Below are positions 9,998-59,268 of a stretch of DNA of 64,000 nt, piece after piece (within the stretch, counting starts at the first letter, position 1; every line of letters starts with the position of its first letter). Made by a program: the position numbers and the translations under genes. The notes under the pieces were generated by a model. That model ran no database searches, was not told where the DNA came from, and saw nothing but the letters and a program-made list of their open reading frames with translations. Source of the stretch: Octopus vulgaris (Eukaryota); contig OX597814.1 in assembly GCA_951406725.2 (NCBI GenBank), positions 65,286,001-65,350,000 of the forward strand, written 5' to 3'.

Positions 9998-10190
9998 TTA
10001 ACGGGAAGCTTTATGAAAATAGACAAAAGACGAAGGCACGTTTACGGAAATAAACAAAAGACGAAGGCAGGTGGAATACAAACAAACAGTTGTATTAGTA
10101 TGGCGCTCAGGAAATATAAATAAAACAAGTCTTTAACGTTTCGAGCCTACGCTCTTCAACAGAAAGATACACAGAGAAAAAACAGAGAAA
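9998..10190 (-). mobile_element. Short interspersed repeat family H1 (Penelope-terminal-repeat-like), copy 1
   Basis: Shares AAGACGAAGGCAGGTGG...TGTATTAG...GTTTCGAGCCTACGCTCTTCNACAGAAAG with copies near 17425, 51995 and 54243. Confidence 0.7.
10130..10167 (-). ncRNA. Minimal type I hammerhead ribozyme motif, variant core CUGUUGA
   Basis: TCTTT-CTGTTGA-A-GAGC(GTAG)GCTC-GAAA-CG-TT-AAAGA: stem I TCTTT/AAAGA, stem II GAGC/GCTC, palindromic AACGTT stem III. Confidence 0.6.
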
Positions 10191-10298
10191 TATATTTATG
10201 CGTATGTAGGTATATATATATACTTATAAAATAAGGATATAATTATAAAATGATTATATCAGTAGCCTAGCACTGAAAAATGACCGTATGGAAAAATG

Positions 10299-10432
10299 AC
10301 CACATGGTTCCGGGTTCAGTCCCACTGCGTGGCACCTTGGGAAAGTGTCTTCTGCTATAGCCCCGGGCCGACCAATGCATTGTGAGTGGATTTGGTAGAC
10401 GGAAACTGAAAGAAACCCGTCGTATATATGTA

Positions 10433-16643: not shown

Positions 16644-17036
16644 GGCGCAGGAGTGACTGTGTGGTAAGTAGCTTGCTTACCAACCACATGGTTCCGGGTT
16701 CAGTCCCACTGCGTGGCATCTTGGGCAAGTGTCTTCTGCTATAGCCCCGGGCCGACCAATGCCTTGTGAGTGGATTTAGTAGACGGAAACTGAAAGAAGC
16801 CTGTGGTATATATGTATATATATATATGTGTGTGTGTGTTAGTGTGTCTGTGTTTGTCCCCCTAGCATTGCTTGACAACCGATGCTGGTGTGTTTACGTC
16901 CCCGTTACTTAGCGGTTCGGCAAAAGAGACCGATAGAATAAGTACTGGGCTTACAAAGAATAAGTCGAGTTGCTCGACTAAAGGCGGTACTCCAGTATGG
17001 CCGCAGTCAAATGACTGAAACAAGTAAAAGAGTAAA
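16644..17036 (+). mobile_element. tRNA-derived SINE family A, full length
   Basis: Head GGCGCAGGAGTGACTGTGTGGTAAG (A box), GGTTCAGTCCC (B box), tail CAAGTAAAAGAGTAAA. Confidence 0.9.
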
Positions 17037-17424: not shown

Positions 17425-17427
<3 letters not shown>

Positions 17428-17627
17428 TGAGGGGGAGAATTCACACACACACAAAAACAAAAGTCGAAGACAGGTGGTGTAGAAAACAAACAAGATGTAT
17501 TAGTTTAACGCACCGGAAGTGAAAAAGTCTCTAACGTTTCGAGCCTACGCTCTTCCACAGAAAGTAATACAGAAAGAAATAGTGAGAGAAAATAAAGAAT
17601 GTGTAGTTGCTAGCGATCTATCATGGC

Positions 17628-17631
<4 letters not shown>
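17425..17631 (-). mobile_element. Repeat family H1 copy 2; hammerhead motif at 17529-17564 (core CUGUGGA)
   Basis: Minus strand CTTT-CTGTGGA-A-GAGCGTAGGCTC-GAAACGTT-AGAG. Confidence 0.7.
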
Positions 17632-20073: not shown

Positions 20074-21050
20074 GGTGGTGGTGGTGGTGGTGGTGGTGTA
20101 TGATAGGTAGTTTTTGTTAAGTTTTGAAAAACACTAGAGACTTTGGTGATGGTGTTTGCTGTTGGTAGCATTACTAGTTAGGTAATACTAACGACTTCTT
20201 GTATAACTGTTAGCCAATCTGATCATTATAAGTATCAGTGAAGGTGTTAGTTTCACTGTTTGTACATTCATTGTTGTTGTTGTTAATATTGTTGTTGCTG
20301 TTGTTGCTGGATGTGATGAAACTACTCGCGGTATTACTGGAGCAGATGGTGTTTCTGTTGGTGGTTTTGACGTCAATAGTGATGATGATGGATCCTGTTG
20401 AGGTTCTTTTTTTGTTGACGTTGTTTCTGTTGATGTTTTTGTTGTTGGGTGTGCTACTACTACTTGTAATATTATTGGAGTATATGGTGTTGCTTGTACC
20501 ACTGCTGGTGGTGGTGGTGGTGGTTCTGGTAGAAATGTGTGCTCTGCAGCTTCACTTAAATTAAAGAACTCATCCCCTACCACCTTAGTAGTTGGTGGAG
20601 AGTTTGTTTGGATAGTTCCGCTCAGAGAAAAGACAGGAAAAATAAAATATATGTGAACTTCGTTTTCCCTGACGTCAAATTTTACCCTTTTCAGTCTGTG
20701 ATTTTTTGTTTTTTTCTTTATTCCCTAATATTATTATTGTTGTTGTTGTTGTTCGTATCACAGTATCCTTTGTTAGACTATTCTACCAGCCTTTGTATTA
20801 CTGTTGTCTGTATTATTGACTTGTCGTTGTTGTTGATGTTGTTGTTGTTATCATCATCATCATGGTTATTATTGTGGTTGTCTTTTATTTTTGTTACTGT
20901 TTTGTGGAGAACTAACTGTTCCACCAGGTTTTATATGGAAAATATTATTGTTGTTGTTGTTGTTGTCAGTGGTGGTGGTGGTGGTGGTTGGCAAGGGTGT
21001 AGCTTGCATGAGATGTCAGTATCGGTAAAGAGACGTAGAAAATGACTCAT
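18232..21050 (-). pseudogene. Putative decayed intronless coding region, Thr/Pro/Asn-rich with RVxF motifs; unidentified
   Basis: Open frame 20724-20188 (GIKKKTKNHRLKRVKFDVRENEVHIY...PEPPPPPP...); can be extended to ATG 21050 through one frameshift and two CAR->TAR stops; repeats are almost all trinucleotide. Portion below 20188 has many stops and is weakly supported. Confidence 0.35.
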
Positions 21051-21254: not shown

Positions 21255-23415
21255 CTGTGTGCAACACTCAAAAAATTACAAGAGATCTGTGGCCATTTTT
21301 ATATGCAAAATGACATGGGAAATCCATTTCTGGCCTTTTTTTGCTGAATTTGGCATGGTTTCTACAGAATTGTCACTGTATACTCTTTTTGTCATTATTA
21401 TTAAATAAAATTCTCTACTGCATTGTAAAATGGGTTTAAACCTAGGGCTGGAGACCAATTTTAGTAACACCTGCAATGTGATTCAAAGCTTGTGTTTAAT
21501 GTTATTTTTTATCATTCAGATCTTATTTGTTTTCAACAATGTGTGCAAGACAGTGCAAAAACGATCCAAACAGATACTGTTATATCTGTGGGGAATTGAC
21601 TTTAGCTAAAGAAAAGCGCAGTATTACACGCCATGTCAAGAAAATAAACAAGGCATATTGCGATTATTACTTAGGAGACCAGGATAAGTCATGGGCTCCT
21701 CATGTGTGTTGTCTTACATGTGTGAAGGCATTGAGTACCTGGTATGCAGGAAAAAATGTTCACATGAAGTTTGGTGTGCCAATGATTTGGTGTGAGCAGA
21801 AAGATCACTCTAATGATTGATATTTGTCACCATGACTTTACAGGCTCTACTACAGCAAAGAAAAAAAAACACATTGTTTACCCAAATTTGCAAGCAGCAA
21901 TGCGCCCTGTAGAGCACTGAGAAAATTTACATGTGCCCAAATCTCCAGATCAAGAAATGCAGAGTTCCAGCAGTACTGATGAACATTCCAGTGGTGAATG
22001 TGTGGAGCCCCATGATCTAAAAAGCGAGAATAAAACAATACCATTTTTTCAAGAGGTTCTAAATGACTTATGCAGGTATCTCTATTTAACCAAAGACAAA
22101 AGTGAGTTTCTGGCATCAAGGCTTCAAGAACGTAAGCTTCTTGAGAAAGGAGTGAAAATAAAACTGTACAGAAAACGTAAAGAGGGTCTGATGAAGGATG
22201 ACTTATGCTTTTGTAATGACATCACTGAACCTTTTGAGCCACTGGAAATACCATATGATAAACCCAACTGGCGACTTTTCATAGATGCATCCAAGGACAG
22301 CATCAAAGTTGTTCTGCTACACAATGGTAGCACTGTGCCTTCTATTCTCATAGCTTATAGCACAGCTATGAGAGAATCATATGAAAATCTAAAAGCAATT
22401 CTAACAAGCATACGGTATGATGACCATACCTGGCATATTTGTGCAGATTTTAAGGTTGTAGCCATGCTTACTGGCCTTCAGCTTAACTATACTAAATTTT
22501 GCTGCTTCCCTGTGCTTAGGAATTCCAGAGCAAGAGCTGATTATGTACACAAGGATTGGGCGATCAAATATGAAATTGAGCAAAGTAAACACATCATGCA
22601 TAAACCACTTGTGAAAAGTGATAGAATTTGTTTACCACCTTTGCATATTAACTTGGTTTGTTTAAGCAATTTGTGAAAGCCTTTGACAAGGAATCCTCCG
22701 CATTTGCATATCTTGCAGAAAAGTTACCTTCCCTGAGTCAAGCTAAAATTAAAGAAGGTTTCTTCATAGGTCCCCAAATTCGAAAAGTTGTATTTGATGA
22801 AACCTTCATCACACATCTCAAGAGAAAAGAGAAGCTTGCCTTTGAGTTATTCAAGAAAGTTTGCGATAACTTCCTGGGCAACCATCGTTCAGAAGACTAT
22901 GTGCAAGTTGTGAATGATCTGCTGAGTCATTATCATGATATGGGATGTAACATGTCTCTAAAAGTTCATGTGCTTCACACTCATTTCGATTTTTTGCAGA
23001 AAATCTTGGTGATGTGAGTGATGAACATGGTGAAAGATCCCATCAGGATATTTCAGTGATGGAGCGACGATTCAAAGGAAAATGGAACCCTGGCATGTTA
23101 GCAGACTACTACTGGGGTATAAAAACAGAAGATCGCACTCCACACAAGAGGCTTAGAAGGACAAAAGTTGTTTAAACTGACAGATGTGTTTTTAAAATTT
23201 TTTGTTTTGTTTTCTGTAACTTTCAGTATTTGCAATGTTGTGTTCAGTACGCTATATTATGCAGTATATTATAAAAAATATGGTTCATGGTACGGGGAAA
23301 CGGTGCCTTATCTGGAGAAATAAAGGCCAGAATCAGAATCATGACAATAATTTGACCCAGAAACAAGTCTTACTTAACTTGTACTTTTTTTAAACCTGAA
23401 ATTTGTTGCACAGTG
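21255..23415 (+). mobile_element. Chapaev3-type (CMC) DNA transposon, near full length (2161 bp)
   Basis: Ends CTGTGTGCAACA / revcomp CACTGTGCAACA, flanked by TTA on both sides (3-bp TSD at 21252-21254 and 23416-23418); encodes the transposase below. Confidence 0.8.
21539..23175 (+). pseudogene. Chapaev3-type transposase, disrupted by stops and frameshifts
   Basis: Cys-rich N-terminus CKNDPNRYCYICGE...GDQDKSWAPHVCCLTC; WRLFIDAS, ICADFKV, PPLHINL, SLKVHVLH, DEHGERSHQDI, MLADYYW across four frames. Confidence 0.85.
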
Positions 23416-24831: not shown

Positions 24832-26086
24832 TTAGGTTGGCAACTAAGTTCCCACCGTTTTGATAATTTAAATTTTTTAAAAAGGTTTAATAAAAAAAAC
24901 AACTAATTAGTCAATAAAGTATTCGCCCTTGTTGTTTACTACTTCTTCCCAACGTTCAACAGGATTTTCAATACCTCGGTGGTAGAAATCACCCGATTTC
25001 GACTCGAAAAATTGATCTAACCAAGCTGTCATTTCTGCATCAGTATTGAACAAAGCTCCGCGCATAGCATTTGAAAGAGATCGAAAGAGGTGGAAATCTG
25101 CTGGTGCCAAATCAGGAGAGTACGGCGGTTGTGGCAGCACTCTCCAGCCATACGATTGAATGTCTTGCTTGGTCATGTTGGCGATATGACGGCGGGAGTT
25201 GTCGCGCTGCAAAAGAACTCCATGCTGCCGAATAGGTCTTTTCTCTTGAATAGTCGTGTAGAATAGTTCCATCTGTTGGTTCCGTTCAAGCAATTCGTAA
25301 TGGATAATCCCTTTTCAGTTCCACCATACGCACAACATCGTTTTATGCGGATGAAGATCTTTCACGCGCGGTGTTGCTTGTTTACCGGGGCTAAGCCATT
25401 CTTTACGCTGCTTCATATTGATGTAGAGGCACGATTTTTCGTCGTCAGTAGCGATTCGGTAAAGAAATTGTTGCTTGTGTCCATGAGTTGAGTGGTGACG
25501 AGCAAGCGAACTAGCAGAGATTGTGGCTTGTTGATTTTTGTTGTTGTCACTTAAAGCATGCGGAACCCGTGCTCCATACTTCTGAACCTTTCCCATCGGG
25601 TGAAGATGCTTCTCTATAGCAATGTGGGAGCATTCTATTGTCTCTGCCAGTTCCATTGTCGTTTGACGAGAATTTTCGTGCAAAAGTTGGTTTAATCGCC
25701 CTTCATCGAACTCAACTGGACGACCAGAACGAGGCAAGTTTTTGAGGTCAAAACTTCCATTTTTGAACATGGCATACCAATCACGAGCGGTTCTTTCAGC
25801 TATGGCACCCTCTTCATACACAGCACAAATGTCACGAGCAGCTTTTGTGGCCTTAGAGCCTTGATTAAAAGCAAGAAGAAGAAGGAGTCAAAAATGCTCG
25901 TTTTTCTTGACATTCCATTTTAATGACCTGAAAAATAAAATTAACTAAAATTAACTAAAAAAAAAAAGACCAAAGATTCCAAAATAATTCAAAAATAGAA
26001 TTCTTGAAAAATTAGATTCCGAAATTTAAATCGCAATAAATTCCAAAATTTAAAGGAACGGCGGGAACTTAATTGTGCCAACCCAA
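24832..26086 (-). mobile_element. Full-length mariner transposon (1255 bp) with TA TSD
   Basis: TIRs TTAGGTTGGCAACTAAGTTCCCACCGTT / TTGGGTTGGCACAATTAAGTTCCCGCCGTT; TA at 24830-24831 and 26087-26088. Confidence 0.93.
24907..25918 (-). pseudogene. Mariner (DD34D-type) transposase pseudogene
   Basis: HTH (WYAMFKNGSFDLKNLPRSGRP), RVPHAL, IATDDEK, MLCVWW, QRDNSRRH, YSPDLAPADFHLF; frameshifts and stops. Confidence 0.92.
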
Positions 26087-28024: not shown

Positions 28025-28396
28025 AGCCAAAAGCGTTGCTGTGTACTAAAATGCTTGGTTCCCAGCCATATGGCTCCGGTTTAAGTCCCATTGCGTGCCC
28101 ATTGGTAAGTGTCTTCTACTATAGCCTCGAGCCGGCTAAAGCCTTGTGAGTGGATTTGATGGAAACAGAAAGAAGACCATCGTATATATATATAATATTA
28201 TGATTAAGGGTATCTAAAAGATACCAACATGCTAGATAAAGCAGGCAAGACTTGACACTAAAACCACATCAAATATTCATACAGCACCATGAGAGAAGAA
28301 TTTATTAATAATTATTACCTATAATGTTTTTATTCCCATGCTAGCCACTTGATATGATCGGTATTTTAAATAACGATCTTATCCTTATTTATATAA

Positions 28397-36914: not shown

Positions 36915-37075
36915 TGGCGAGTTATTTTTTTGAAATTTCCGTCCTCCAAATCCACTCGCAAAGCTTTGAGTACCTCGAGCCTTTAGGACTACAGCAGAAG
37001 AAACTTGTTCAAGGTATCACGCAGTGGGAGTGAATCTGAAACCACGTGGCTGAAAAGCAAATTTTTTACCACACA
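36915..37075 (-). mobile_element. SINE family A head fragment; tail fragment at ~37305-37352
   Basis: TTTCCGTCTCCAAATCCACTCGCAAAGCTTTG...CACGCAGTGGGA is the reverse complement of the SINE A head. Confidence 0.65.
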
Positions 37076-37448: not shown

Positions 37449-38312
37449 CTGGGTCGTCCTATAAATAATGCGGTTTTATATATTTCTTTTACTTTTCAAA
37501 ATTAAGATAAACAAACTTCATTTTTTAAATCTAAAATATACTCATATTATACAATTCTCTTCCAGAATACACTTGTCCGTGGTGAAAAATATCCTCCAGT
37601 ACTGTTCTGACTTCCTCCACAGAATTCATACTTATTTCCGTCCAAATTATTTCGAAGGCTGTAAAATAAATGATCATCATATGGGTTAATGTCCGGCGAA
37701 TATGGTGGGAGGGACATCGCTTCCCATTCAAACTGCTCCATCCTTTGGAATGTCAACCTCGCTGTATGTAGCCGAGCATTATCCTGATGGAAGAACAACT
37801 TTCGTCTTGAAACCAACGATGGTCTTTTTCCGATAGCACACCAGTGTCGATGAATGGTTGAATGGCCAAATCCAAGTTTCTGTGCTAGTTCCTCAATAAT
37901 CACAAAGGAGTTTTGCTCCACCAGGGATTGCAGCACGTCCCCGTCGAGCTCAACAGATCTTCCAAGAGGAGGCTAATCTTCTAGGCTGTAGTTTACGGCT
38001 CAGAATTTCTGGAATCACCGTTGACACTGGTTTATACTTGTTGTCCGATCCCCATATATTGCATTTATATTCCTCGCACTTGTTGCCTTTACTGAACTTA
38101 TAAAGCAAAATATGCCGAATATGCTTCTTTGTTACTCCCATTATAGCTTTAAAAAAAGAACTGTTAAAATCGAACTGCACTCTTCAAAACTTGCACTAAG
38201 TTAAAATTGCTACCTGATTCTATAGTAAGTAGATGCAGGTAGTTTATCTCGTCCCCCTCTGACTTCAAGTTCATGCAATTGAAAAAATTGCATTATTTAT
38301 GGGAAGACCCCA
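37449..38312 (-). mobile_element. Internally deleted mariner element (864 bp)
   Basis: 28-bp TIRs CTGGGTCGTCCTATAAATAATGCGGTTT / TGGGGTCTTCCCATAAATAATGCAATTT; MGVTKKHIRHILLY, ELAQKLGFGHSTIHRH fused directly to HQDNARLHTA...PPYSPDINPYDDHLF. Confidence 0.9.
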
Positions 38313-41776: not shown

Positions 41777-41922
41777 GGGCTTCTTTCAGTTTCTGCCAAC
41801 CAGGACTTTGGGCAGCCCGGGGGTTTAGTAGAAGACACTTGCTCAAGATGTCGCAAAGTAGCACTGACCTTGAACCATATGATTGGGAAACATGCTTTTT
41901 TATCACCAGTCATTCCTGCGCC
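41512..41922 (-). mobile_element. SINE family A (diverged)
   Basis: Reverse complement of the 16644-17036 organisation, ends CCTGCGCC. Confidence 0.75.
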
Positions 41923-43963: not shown

Positions 43964-45189
43964 CTACATATGCACATCATATTCATTCACTACTTCCTTT
44001 TTGAAGTTGAATCTACTCGTATATCTACGATGACAAGTCTCATCCACTACATCTTTAATAAGTTTAGCTTTCGGCTCCCAAGAAATGCATGACGTTCCCA
44101 TTCTTGTCGCTTGTTTTGTGAGTAGACTATCGGTGATCGTTTCGGCCTTCAACCTATTAGTGAACTTTGTCTTTGTGCAATTTATTTGGGGAAATATGCG
44201 CTCCACGCACGCTGATGAATGAGGTAACAACGTTAAGTTAGTCATGAGTTGTGACAGCCTTTCAAATTTAGAGAAATCAAGCCAGTTTTGGAGATTGCGT
44301 ATGGAATACCGGAATTCAGGGATACTTTTTGAGGAAACAGGAATATCTTTATATTTCCGAAATAATCTGCATTCAGCGTCTAGTTCATCAAGTGTGTTTT
44401 CTGGTGCAATTGCTGGAAAGTTTGAAGCCAAGGGAATTATCGAGTGAAGAGAGTTAGTGAGATCGCGCGCTACTTTTGGATCAAGTATTTCTAAGAGGGC
44501 CAACACACCAGCTTCATCATTTTTAAGTGAGCGCATAATTTTATTAAAAAAAGTTTTGCAATCAGTTTTGAATCACCAACAAGCTGAGTCACCAGCGATG
44601 AGGTTTTGTTCTAGATATCTCATTGCGCGTCCATCGAGGTAAATATCACTCATATCTTTGTGATTTGTTGTGTTACTAAGATCGATATTTGATAATTTAG
44701 ATAAAGCTAAAACATCCTCTTTTATAAAACAACTAAGGATACTTTTATATTCACTGGGTAAGAGTGTATGCAACAGATGCAGTCGAAAGTGTTCCGATTG
44801 AAACTCGATATTAAGAACATTTACTTTCTTTAATATATAATGTAAGAAGAGCAGAATGTGCTTCGTCCCTTTGTTAATCATTGCTTCAGAGATTCTTTTT
44901 GCTCCGTCCACTTTTCTACTTTAGCCTCATACTGAAAATAAAGTACAAGGGTATCTCACTGTTCTATTATGACGTTGATTACATTTTCACCATTTTCTAC
45001 TACAATTGTATCCAGAAGAGCACCCTTGACATTAAGCGATTGTTCATAAAAGAAAAAAAAACGAAGAACTATTGCTAAGATTTGTGTCACTGAGATGTCC
45101 ATACTCTAATCTCTCAATACTGAAAACTCTTGTTTCTTGAGAATTTCCAAGATTTCATTTCGTTCATAATGTGCAAGTAAGTTTTGCAT
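43964..45189 (-). pseudogene. hAT-family transposase remnant
   Basis: LKKQEFSVLRD*SMDISVTQILAIVLR (first catalytic D region), LNIEFQSE, LDP, and C-terminal dimerisation motif LLPHSSACVERIFPQINCTKTKFTNRL. Possible GTAAGT..TTTCAG intron at 43931-43822 downstream. TIRs not identified. Confidence 0.85.
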
Positions 45190-49425: not shown

Positions 49426-49605
49426 TACATACATATATATATATACGACGTGCTTGACGTGCTACTTTTCGATTCCGTCTACCAAATCAATTCATGAAGA
49501 TTTGGTCGGCCCGAGGCTATAGTAGAAGCCACTTGCCCAAGTGGGACTGAACCCAGAACCATGTGGTTGGGAAGCAAGCTTCTTGCAACACAGCCACTCC
49601 TGCGC
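49276..49605 (-). mobile_element. SINE family A (internal deletion)
   Basis: Reverse complement of SINE A tail and head. Confidence 0.8.
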
Positions 49606-51994: not shown

Positions 51995-52181
51995 TAGAGA
52001 GAAATTACAAAAAAAAATGACGGGTGTGTAAACAACAAACACATGTATTAGTTCAACGCTCGGGAAGTGAGAAAGTCTTTTATGTTTCGAGCCTACGCTC
52101 TTCAACAGAAAGGAACACAGAAATAAACACGGAGAGAAAATAGAAAAAGGTTTAGCGGCTACCGATCTATCATGGCGAATA
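51995..52181 (-). mobile_element. Repeat family H1 copy 3; hammerhead motif at 52077-52112
   Basis: Minus strand CTTT-CTGTTGA-A-GAGCGTAGGCTC-GAAACATA-AAAG (stem III G mutated). Confidence 0.7.
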
Positions 52182-54242: not shown

Positions 54243-54245
<3 letters not shown>

Positions 54246-54455
54246 CGGGAAAGTTAACGAAAATAAACAAAAGACGAAGGCAGGTGGAGCACAAACAAAA
54301 CAAATGTATTAGTATAGCGCTCAGGAATAGAAATAGAAAAAGTCTTTTACGTTTCGAGCCTACGCTCTTCGACAGAAAGATACACAGAAAAAAACAAGGA
54401 GAGAAACAAGGAGAGAAAAAAATGCGTGTAGGAGCTAACGATCTATCATGGCGTC
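54243..54455 (-). mobile_element. Repeat family H1 copy 4; hammerhead motif at 54343-54380 (core CUGUCGA)
   Basis: Minus strand TCTTT-CTGTCGA-A-GAGCGTAGGCTC-GAAACGTA-AAAGA. Confidence 0.7.
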
Positions 54456-54647
54456 CTGACTTCGGACAGTGGTCAGACGCGAGACACTATATATATATAT
54501 ATATATAGTGATAGAAAAGATAAGACAGCAAAAGAATGAAAGAGACCTCGATATTATCTAAATAGACAAATTTATCTGTAAATGTAATATGTGACAATAA
54601 AACTCCGAGTTTCGGTCGTCGGGGTGGAAATCCACGCTGCCATGGCG

Positions 54648-57208: not shown

Positions 57209-58013
57209 CGAAATCTTATCAATAAGTATCCGGACTGTTGCCATAGTGACGAAACTAAAGCACGCAGAGTGAAGACGCTCGGCACAGACTGACCTTGAAC
57301 TCTGCGGTATTAACGTTCTAGCTCACTGGCACTGTTTAGTACAGCGCTTGGAAGGAAGGTGTATAGCATGTGATCGTCGCTTTGACCATGACAGAGCAAG
57401 TTCTCATGGTGACATCTACTCAGAGGCCTGCAGAAAGTTGCAGAAAGTGTATGGAGAGGAATGTATGAGGCGCACACAAGTGTACGAGTGGTTCAGACGT
57501 TTCCAAGATGGCCAAAAAAATGTCGATATTGACGAACGTTCTGGGAGACCCGTAACCAGCAGAACGAGAACAACATCGCAGATGTGCGTGCAGCTGTGGG
57601 GAAAAATTGTCGAATCAGGATCCGGAGGATGTGCAGATTAGTTACAGTTCAACTCAGTCCATTATCACACTAGATTTGGGAATGAGTCGAGTGTCTGCCA
57701 AGTGTATGCCAAATCTGCTTTCAGCTGACCAAAAAGAATACTCGGGCTTCCGTTGCATAAAATTTCCTTGATTGTGTTGAGAACAATGAAAAGTTTTTGG
57801 CAAAATTTTGATGCGGATTTTTGCTCACCTTTCTCACACGCTACACAACTTCCTTCCAAGCACTGCTGTAAACATCGGAAGTGAGTTAAAGCGGTAAAGC
57901 TTAGTCTGCATGCACAGTAGGGTTGAAGGTCACTCCGTGCCAAGTGGCTTTACTTTCCGTGCTTTAGCTTTGTTACTACAGCAACAGTGCGCATACTTAT
58001 TGATCAGACCACG
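57209..58013 (+). mobile_element. Non-autonomous mariner derivative with long inverted arms (sister of 7677-8493)
   Basis: TA|CGAAATCTTATCAATAAGTATCCGGACTGTTG ... CATACTTATTGATCAGACCACG|TA; HTH remnant KLQKVYGEECMRRTQVYEWFRRFQDG...DERSGRP. Confidence 0.85.
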
Positions 58014-58613: not shown

Positions 58614-59045
58614 AGTAGAGGTTAAAGTAGCCTCATTAAGGGACAGAAAATATCCAATGAATTACTAGTTTGTTGCCTATTATTTTGATGTGAATAATAA
58701 TATTCCTAAAATAATAGGCTGAAGTATAAATCTAGGTTTATAAAAGTTCAAATTGAAATCCAAAAAATGAAGAAGTAGTATTAACATAATTTATTAACTG
58801 CACAAATTCAACATGTTCTCTTACAGCTGTTTTGATTTTGACCGAAAGAATTAAATTACAGCAATAAAGACCTCGTCTGAGATGTAACATGATATACCGT
58901 TAGGTTTTTACATGTTATTCTTTCGAAACATCTCAACAGAATGATTCTCATTTAATTAATTACTAATATTAGTATAAACCTTGCCCAGAGGGTAATAAGT
59001 TGTATAAGGGTAATAACTGGTAAATAAAGGTTATATAAAAATACA

Positions 59046-59258
59046 CGAGGGTCGCTGAAAGGTTCCTGGCTTTAAGGGTATCGCAAAGGGCTTGGTTGGT
59101 GGCCCAACCTTCTGGGTTCTTTTAGAGGGTTTAGAAAAACTGAAGGACCGCTACAGTAACTGTGTGAATCTGAGAGAGGAATATGTTCAATAAATTCATA
59201 AACTGATCGTTCTGTATTTCCTTTAACACAAAGCCAAGAACTTTTCAGTACCCCCTCT
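59046..59258. mobile_element. Mariner-type MITE (~210 bp)
   Basis: TIRs CGAGGGTCGCTGAAAGGTTCCTGGCTTT / AGAGGGGGTACTGAAAAGTTCTTGGCTTT. Confidence 0.75.
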
Positions 59259-59268
59259 CTTATACCCA

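Follow-up and report, generated by a model that had tools for sequence, protein, structure and literature searches.

The window analysed here, a stretch of 64,000 nucleotides of Octopus vulgaris DNA, contains four minus-strand copies of a short motif which, judged by its sequence, is built like a hammerhead ribozyme in all but position 6 of the core, where it carries U and fails the strict consensus. This U is fixed across the family, as far as the family could be placed, and the motif belongs to a known kind of retroelement ribozyme motif, from which it differs by a core variant shared throughout the family, with no new kind of system involved. The copies lie at 10130–10167 (copy 1), 17528–17565 (copy 2), 52076–52113 (copy 3) and 54343–54380 (copy 4), given here in a 38-nt form; the intervals 17529–17564 and 52077–52112 of an earlier note on this DNA denote these motifs with one base fewer on either side. 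The presence of the four motifs reported in that note was borne out by a 25-base core pattern, which gave four matches in the window, even with three mismatches allowed, and no match in any of 100 shuffles. No fifth family copy was detected in the window by an ungapped scan allowing up to 14 mismatches in 38. The core letters also proved to be as claimed, with U at position 6 in all four copies, T, G, T and C at the free position N7 and GUU, GUU, AUA and GUA as the triplets of copies 1 to 4. Copy 1 has an intact palindrome, copy 2 retains a U–G wobble at stem I position 1.2, and copy 3 has lost the palindrome at 16.2 through a CpG-type change.

The motif runs in the order C3 U4 G5 U6 N7 G8 A9, an extra A, a stem II of 4 bp with a 4-nt loop, and G12 A13 A14, followed by A15.1 C15.2 G16.2 U16.1 and then H17. 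This is the layout of a minimal type I hammerhead, with a stem I of 4–5 bp, CUGUNGA plus the extra A, GAAA and an NUH triplet. Helix III is absent from the motif, and the self-complementary four-mer ACGU stands in its place. Compared with the type I consensus (C3 U4 G5 A6 N7 G8 A9...G12 A13 A14, A15.1–U16.1, H17), the motif fails at position 6 alone, and both the extra base between A9 and G10.1 and the G10.1–C11.1 pair are found in all four copies. In copy 4, the minus-strand positions are 54375 for C3, 54372 for U6, 54371 for N7, 54370 for G8, 54368 for the extra A, 54367–54364 with 54359–54356 for stem II, 54355 for G12, 54349 for U16.1 and 54348 for H17. The core numbering is settled by stem I, since it closes exactly on C3 and H17. 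An alternative numbering with a U insertion after G5 was rejected; it would free position 6 and break C3–G8, yet the free base precedes an invariant G. A strict descriptor with position 6 left free recovered three of the four copies and nothing in any of 40 shuffles. No hammerhead model appeared among the 150 of 406 Rfam matches listed for the window, nor among the four matches returned by a search with copy 4 alone; Rfam is not known to hold a model that lacks helix III. The attribution of the layout to the minimal type I kind found in Penelope-like elements, as proposed in the earlier note, is supported by its fit to the consensus given in the available part of PMC4209133.

Each motif is embedded in a longer host repeat on the minus strand, whose copies occupy, with approximate ends, 9999–10210, 17426–17629, 51995–52179 and 54245–54487, a direct density of four copies in 64 kb. 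These copies measure 185–245 bases, are 76–90% alike and fall into two groups, the subfamilies being 76–78% alike overall. The first copy starts later than the others, contains a short duplication inside the repeat, close to the 3' end, and is bounded by (TA)n on both sides. The second lies between (TA)n tracts and belongs to the second subfamily, which has a gap of 6–7 bases after the motif; the third, of the same subfamily, has (TA)n before it and a TA/CA-rich tract after it. The fourth and longest, with 34 extra bases at the 5' end, again lies between (TA)n tracts. Thus, (TA)n directly precedes all four copies and directly follows three of them, and three different 5' ends are seen among the four. 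All the copies in the window are solitary, with none in tandem arrangement. The window as a whole is AT-rich and crowded with microsatellites and transposon remains.

The host repeat, which is dispersed and very abundant, is likely to be the 3' end of a Penelope-like retroelement; this membership is likely but, with no parent reading frame detected, falls short of proof. None of the 22 window frames scanned (out of 118 listed, the others being mostly simple repeats) matched a reverse transcriptase or GIY-YIG Pfam family, no reading frame with a telomerase-like reverse transcriptase and a GIY-YIG endonuclease lies next to any of the four copies, and a protein search with a frame of the host repeat gave no match. 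Likewise, an exact scan with a 20-base piece of the family found no locus in viral contigs, metagenome contigs or prokaryote genomes. Penelope-like elements account for 6.83% of the O. vulgaris genome, in 190 families, and the part of that genome text searched makes no mention of a ribozyme (PMC13282606). Moreover, (TA)n microsatellite targets have been described for the Neptune, Naiad and Hydra clades (PMC8557442, available in part).

The variation of the family beyond the window was followed in contigs from four of 24 listed public runs, X1, X3, X6 and X13 (organism labels A, B, C and A), which were placed on copy 4 at a threshold of 80% likeness, with differences listed from 2%. This placed 13,212, 18,520, 11,954 and 4,257 contigs, respectively; run X13 is RNA by guess only and was excluded as expression evidence. 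At position 6, no letter other than U reaches 2% in any of the four runs, in a placement that an A6 sister family less than 80% alike to copy 4 would escape and in which clipping could remove simultaneous changes of positions 6 and 7 close to the end of a contig. The claim that U6 is a lineage-fixed core variant is supported by this result. The shares at N7, which like all those given here are depth-weighted contig figures and not copy counts, are 29–47% for U, 24–26% for A and 1–13% for G, with C as the rest. H17 is U in 11–23% and otherwise A, with no G at the 2% listing level. C3, U4, G5, A9, the extra A, G10.1, A13, A14, A15.1 and U16.1 have no listed change in the four runs, while G12 is changed in 1.6–4.0%, like other CpG sites, 15.2 and 16.2 in 3–9% each, and position 1.4 shows a G-to-U change in 4–6.5%, at the cost of one stem I pair. 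Loop 2 has CpG-type change alone. Speaking against clipping within the core, coverage declines at an even rate to either side of the motif, with the top loose ends at 54379, outside the core. Head-to-tail joints were seen in one contig each in runs X3 and X6 and in none in X1 and X13. The changes at 15.2 and 16.2 (54350–54351) are nearly equal within each of the four runs, which may stem from CpG decay acting symmetrically or from a subfamily that has a second palindrome; their reading as a compensatory double change was set aside, as phase is not visible and CpG decay in ACG context explains them equally well.

In all six pairs of copies the motif is identical in 33–35 of 37 columns, whereas the 5' flanks are 62–80% and the 3' flanks 62–82% identical, in agreement with the earlier observation of a motif conserved over diverging flanks. 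The motif is covered about four times as deeply as the flanks, and for hundreds of contigs the match breaks off at 54379 or at 54336–54339, sites that fall at or just beyond stem I. Because an indel and a pyrimidine-rich tract lie at the edges of this conserved island, the contrast to the flanks is exaggerated. Apart from N7 and H17, the changes inside the motif are CpG transitions and the single G-to-U change at 1.4. CpG decay tracks its context, at about 3–10% for ACG and 0.3–4% for TCG or GCG, and the dispersed copies look neutral because this decay strikes G12 like any other site. The C7–G8 dinucleotide is nevertheless lopsided, with U7 at 29–47% against 0.3–2.1% for A8, the mirror change, and this lopsidedness is therefore not explained by CpG decay after insertion; A7 and G7 are transversions. 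The five non-CpG changes in the 37-nt motif comprise three at N7, one at H17 and one at 1.4, so that four out of five fall on N7 or H17 (rough binomial p of 4e-5, or 3e-3 if the four loop 2 bases are counted as free). Since these are the positions that a hammerhead leaves free, it appears probable that constraint acts on hammerhead-shaped RNA in the source elements. The dispersed copies would then be passengers, with the constraint confined to the source elements. Of the proposal that the core variant was maintained by function, a constraint on the motif finds support, as an inference from the N7 and H17 changes, for the source elements; it does not extend to the dispersed copies, which decay neutrally, G12 included.

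All four copies can form a stem I of 4–5 bp and a stem II of 4 bp. In the isolated motif, stem II forms with a probability of 0.99–1.0 and stem I with 0.6–0.95 in three copies and 0.1 in copy 2, and both are weakened by 30 flanking bases. There is no stem II covariation within the family, loop included. In comparison with five pattern-selected motifs of other families, whose homology is unproven, both bases are altered in three of four stem I pairs, and stem II is altered on a single side. The invariance of stem II, as previously stated, is not evidence of covariation. With regard to the ACGT palindrome described as a reduced stem III, it is intact in three copies and lost in the copy at 52076, which has A at 16.2. 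The palindrome duplex alone is weak (−1.7 kcal/mol) and, on co-folding, the active dimer is not the lowest-energy form. A U6–A15.1 pairing closes the monomer with a probability of at least 0.98 in two of the copies, the values in the other two being 0.23 and 0.42. The notion of a monomer lock peculiar to U6 was discarded, given that the A6 version folds closed too. The folding z-scores of the motif are modest (−2.2, −0.5, −2.8 and −0.6) and carry no evidential weight.

Taken as a whole, we regard it as an evenly balanced proposition that the source elements kept the U6 fold under selection and that the motif would cut slowly, probably only with a partner copy or an element protein. The family would have originated from a Neptune-like element, its copies being 5'-truncated or non-autonomous. 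Two motifs might pair through the palindrome and so supply helix III, or an element protein might fold the core, and a slow cut after H17 would then trim the element RNA from a longer transcript. The retention of G8, G12 and NUH in the source lineages was counted for cleavage, and self-cleavage as such would seem about equally probable either way. That U6 marks an active hammerhead subtype with a changed dependence on metal ions, partner RNA or element protein is put forward tentatively. The precedents, from sources available in part, point in both directions. A natural A6C ribozyme has low residual activity and prefers Mn2+ (PMC3088659; PMC7151607), with a more than 10,000-fold cost in Mg2+ relative to Mn2+ in one ribozyme (PMC7151607), and the Penelope hammerhead of Anolis cleaves only upon addition of the element protein (PMC11167929). 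Minimal hammerheads are weak even with A6 and even as dimers (PMC4209133), and in a full mutant scan the single and double changes of the CUGA turn were all of low activity, bar the C3–G8 swap (PMC9901934). Within the family, the rarity of head-to-tail joints, the weak palindrome duplex, the missing stem II covariation and the pair-breaking change at 1.4 likewise weigh against the proposal. Furthermore, hammerhead cleavage is dispensable for insertion in vitro, where catalytic mutants are unimpaired (PMC11167929), and Naiad elements proliferate without a canonical hammerhead (PMC8557442); a dead core could therefore ride along.

The latter observations lend themselves to a different account, which we consider rather unlikely, whereby U6 abolished cleavage in an ancestral source and the fold was kept for protein binding or for positioning the start of reverse transcription. 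The poor activity of CUGA-turn mutants (PMC9901934) fits with it, as does the fact that insertion in vitro is unharmed by catalytic mutants while the element protein acts on the hammerhead RNA region (PMC11167929, available in part). Loop 2, which is free in a ribozyme, has CpG-type change only, and U6–A15.1 closes the monomer with a probability of at least 0.98 in two of the four copies; however, the closed monomer is weak in the other two (0.23 and 0.42) and the A6 version closes as well. Such a disarmed fold does not sit easily with the retention of G8, G12 and NUH in source lineages in which N7 changed three times, and a plain hairpin has no need of C3, G8, A9, G12 and A13. Alternatively, the motif could be under no constraint at all, with U6 as a founder mutation in one successful source and a GC-richer motif that mutates and slips less than its simple-sequence flanks. 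The neutral decay of the dispersed copies, including G12 (1.6–4.0%), would be expected in that case, the flanks are indel-prone low-complexity tracts, elements lacking a hammerhead proliferate (PMC8557442, in its available part), and the argument for constraint draws on five non-CpG changes in all. Yet these changes gather on N7, which takes all four letters, and on H17, free positions that had been named beforehand; C7 goes to U in 29–47% and G8 to A in 0.3–2.1% within one dinucleotide, and subfamilies only 76–78% alike overall have 33–35 of 37 motif bases in common. We hence judge an absence of constraint improbable. Even less credit is given to an incidental likeness, in which the conserved block would act in a SINE-like element as a promoter or DNA-level signal. 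This would accord with the lack of a hammerhead among the Rfam matches listed and of a parent element, but every segment length and place is that of the published minimal consensus, including the extra base, G10.1–C11.1, the palindrome and the U-rich and AU-rich flanks, C3 and H17 are exactly where stem I closes, and the strict descriptor with position 6 free hits three of four copies and none of 40 shuffles.

A further site on the minus strand, at 58818–58944, had been described as a degenerate long-stem motif with CTGTTGA. It can be drawn as claimed, with a loose hammerhead-like layout, U6 and a palindromic loop 3, but it lacks G12, which is A at 58833, and it is unrelated to the family. Its stem II consists of 3 bp round about 95 nt, and four of five stem I pairs are present. 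The CTGTTGA 7-mer is no commoner than chance would give (31 times, against 26.3 ± 5.3 expected), although a relaxed descriptor written after the site had been seen gave a hit in only one of 40 shuffles. The site shows no similarity to the family and has no second copy in the window. Its classification as a member of the family was rejected, and so was that as a piece of a Naiad element. Going by its letters, the site cannot be an ordinary active hammerhead; it is possibly a decayed remnant of another family.

The window also contains a second repeat family of six copies, found by repeat comparison within the window at 10300–10410, 16684–16794 and 28066–28170 on the plus strand and at 36936–37049, 41808–41881 and 49473–49566 on the minus strand, the first two being 96% alike. 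We take this family to be an octopus tRNA-derived SINE. Its copies lie on both strands, and all four hammerhead-bearing copies (10130–54380) lie on the minus strand, for which the chance is 1 in 8. A 177-residue open frame rich in Thr, Pro and Ser at 20188–20724 (minus strand) could represent an exon from a mucin-like gene; it has no Pfam family, and a protein search gave no homologue of similar length. Broken DNA-transposon frames, with mariner-type HTH/DDE and weak hAT matches, are found at 24907–25887, 37547–37972 and 43964–44920 on the minus strand and at 57273–57641 on the plus strand. At 21500–23017 (plus strand) lies a broken set of transposase-like frames whose start is rich in Cys and which match nothing in Pfam. 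Imperfect terminal inverted repeats bound a short element at about 59050–59260, by eye a mariner-type MITE.

A broader U6 pattern was also run over metagenome contigs and gave 46 loci, of which 24 GC-rich ones probably match by chance and were left aside. Twenty of the 46 belong to a coral-like family, with two of them on one contig, and the remaining two to other AT-rich families. In the coral-like family, U6 is found in the pattern-selected copies only; it is considered sporadic there, because all three intact siblings that had not been selected by the pattern have A6. None of 40 frames from 21 of the metagenome loci matched a reverse-transcriptase or GIY-YIG Pfam family. Loci L024 (2468–2494) and L044 (72–98) contain U6 minimal hammerhead motifs of animal type, from other families, with stems I and II intact. 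In L010, L029, L034 and L043, the coral-like motif has an inverted truncated copy immediately upstream, an arrangement that has been described for Penelope-like insertions (PMC8557442, available in part).

Position 6 belongs to the CUGA turn and is fixed in published search descriptors (PMC8557442, PMC13481778 and PMC10945747, each available in part), so that the U6 family is invisible to searches built on them. It is also missed by Rfam. If the motif cuts, the consensus for hammerheads will have to be broadened, and the family amounts to thousands of natural structure–function variants; an active motif would also mean that searches demanding CUGANGA have missed a class, and that Penelope-like clades scored as hammerhead-less may carry such variants. 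If it does not cut, the family offers a natural experiment on whether Penelope-like elements need the chemistry of the hammerhead or just its fold, a question raised by PMC8557442, PMC4209133 and PMC11167929 in their available parts. The literature searched in part, including PMC6765202, PMC7229834, PMC13481778, PMC10945747 and PMC13725137 and covering text outside figures, Repbase and Dfam, holds no U6 family and no hammerhead in this repeat; Lunse et al. 2017 or Arkhipova et al. 2017 could record one. Lunse et al. 2017, to go by its title, reportedly deals with numerous small hammerhead variants tied to Penelope-like elements, and the work on the PAc hammerhead of the Anolis element Poseidon is said to be that of Frangieh et al.

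Among the systems with which the family can be compared, through sources available in part, the natural position-6 variants, A6C of phage Bcep176 and the A6a insertion, likewise leave the core otherwise intact and keep low activity (PMC3088659; PMC7151607). However, such A6C and A6a cases are single phage or bacterial sequences with C and a real helix III, whereas here U is fixed in an amplified animal repeat. The PAc hammerhead of Anolis Poseidon provides a model for a weak core that works or is tolerated; the accessible text names C3 and G8 as conserved and mentions no change at position 6, and the hammerhead belongs to a full element with a known frame, of which none was found here (PMC11167929). 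Within Octopus, Hydra-1_Obim and Naiad are also Penelope-like elements that insert into (TA)n, but the core of Hydra-1_Obim is canonical with A6 and its stem II spans 7 bp, and Naiads are without a canonical hammerhead (PMC8557442). A 12-base piece of the stem II of the family is absent from the available supplement of that source, in which line breaks may hide a match. Animal non-LTR retrozymes resemble the host repeat in being non-coding repeats of 170–400 nt with a type I hammerhead, present in molluscs among others; nevertheless, they have canonical hammerheads and form tandem arrays, while the family here is minimal and dispersed, with tandem copies rare (PMC7229834). The metazoan Penelope-like minimal hammerheads share with the octopus motif a short stem I, the extra base between A9 and G10.1, the G10.1–C11.1 pair, a palindromic 15.2–16.2 in place of helix III, an NUH triplet and a U-rich 5' flank, and their copies are also mostly solitary and dispersed (PMC4209133). 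The core variant named in the accessible text of that study is U3–A8, and all 56 representatives in its Fig. S3, none of them from a cephalopod, have A6, as the descriptor demanded, in contrast to the fixed U6 of the family described here (PMC4209133). The closest described motif is the hammerhead of the Acropora digitifera Neptune element, which has the same length in every segment, including the 4-bp stem II and 4-nt loop, and the same palindrome, but A at position 6 (PMC4209133).
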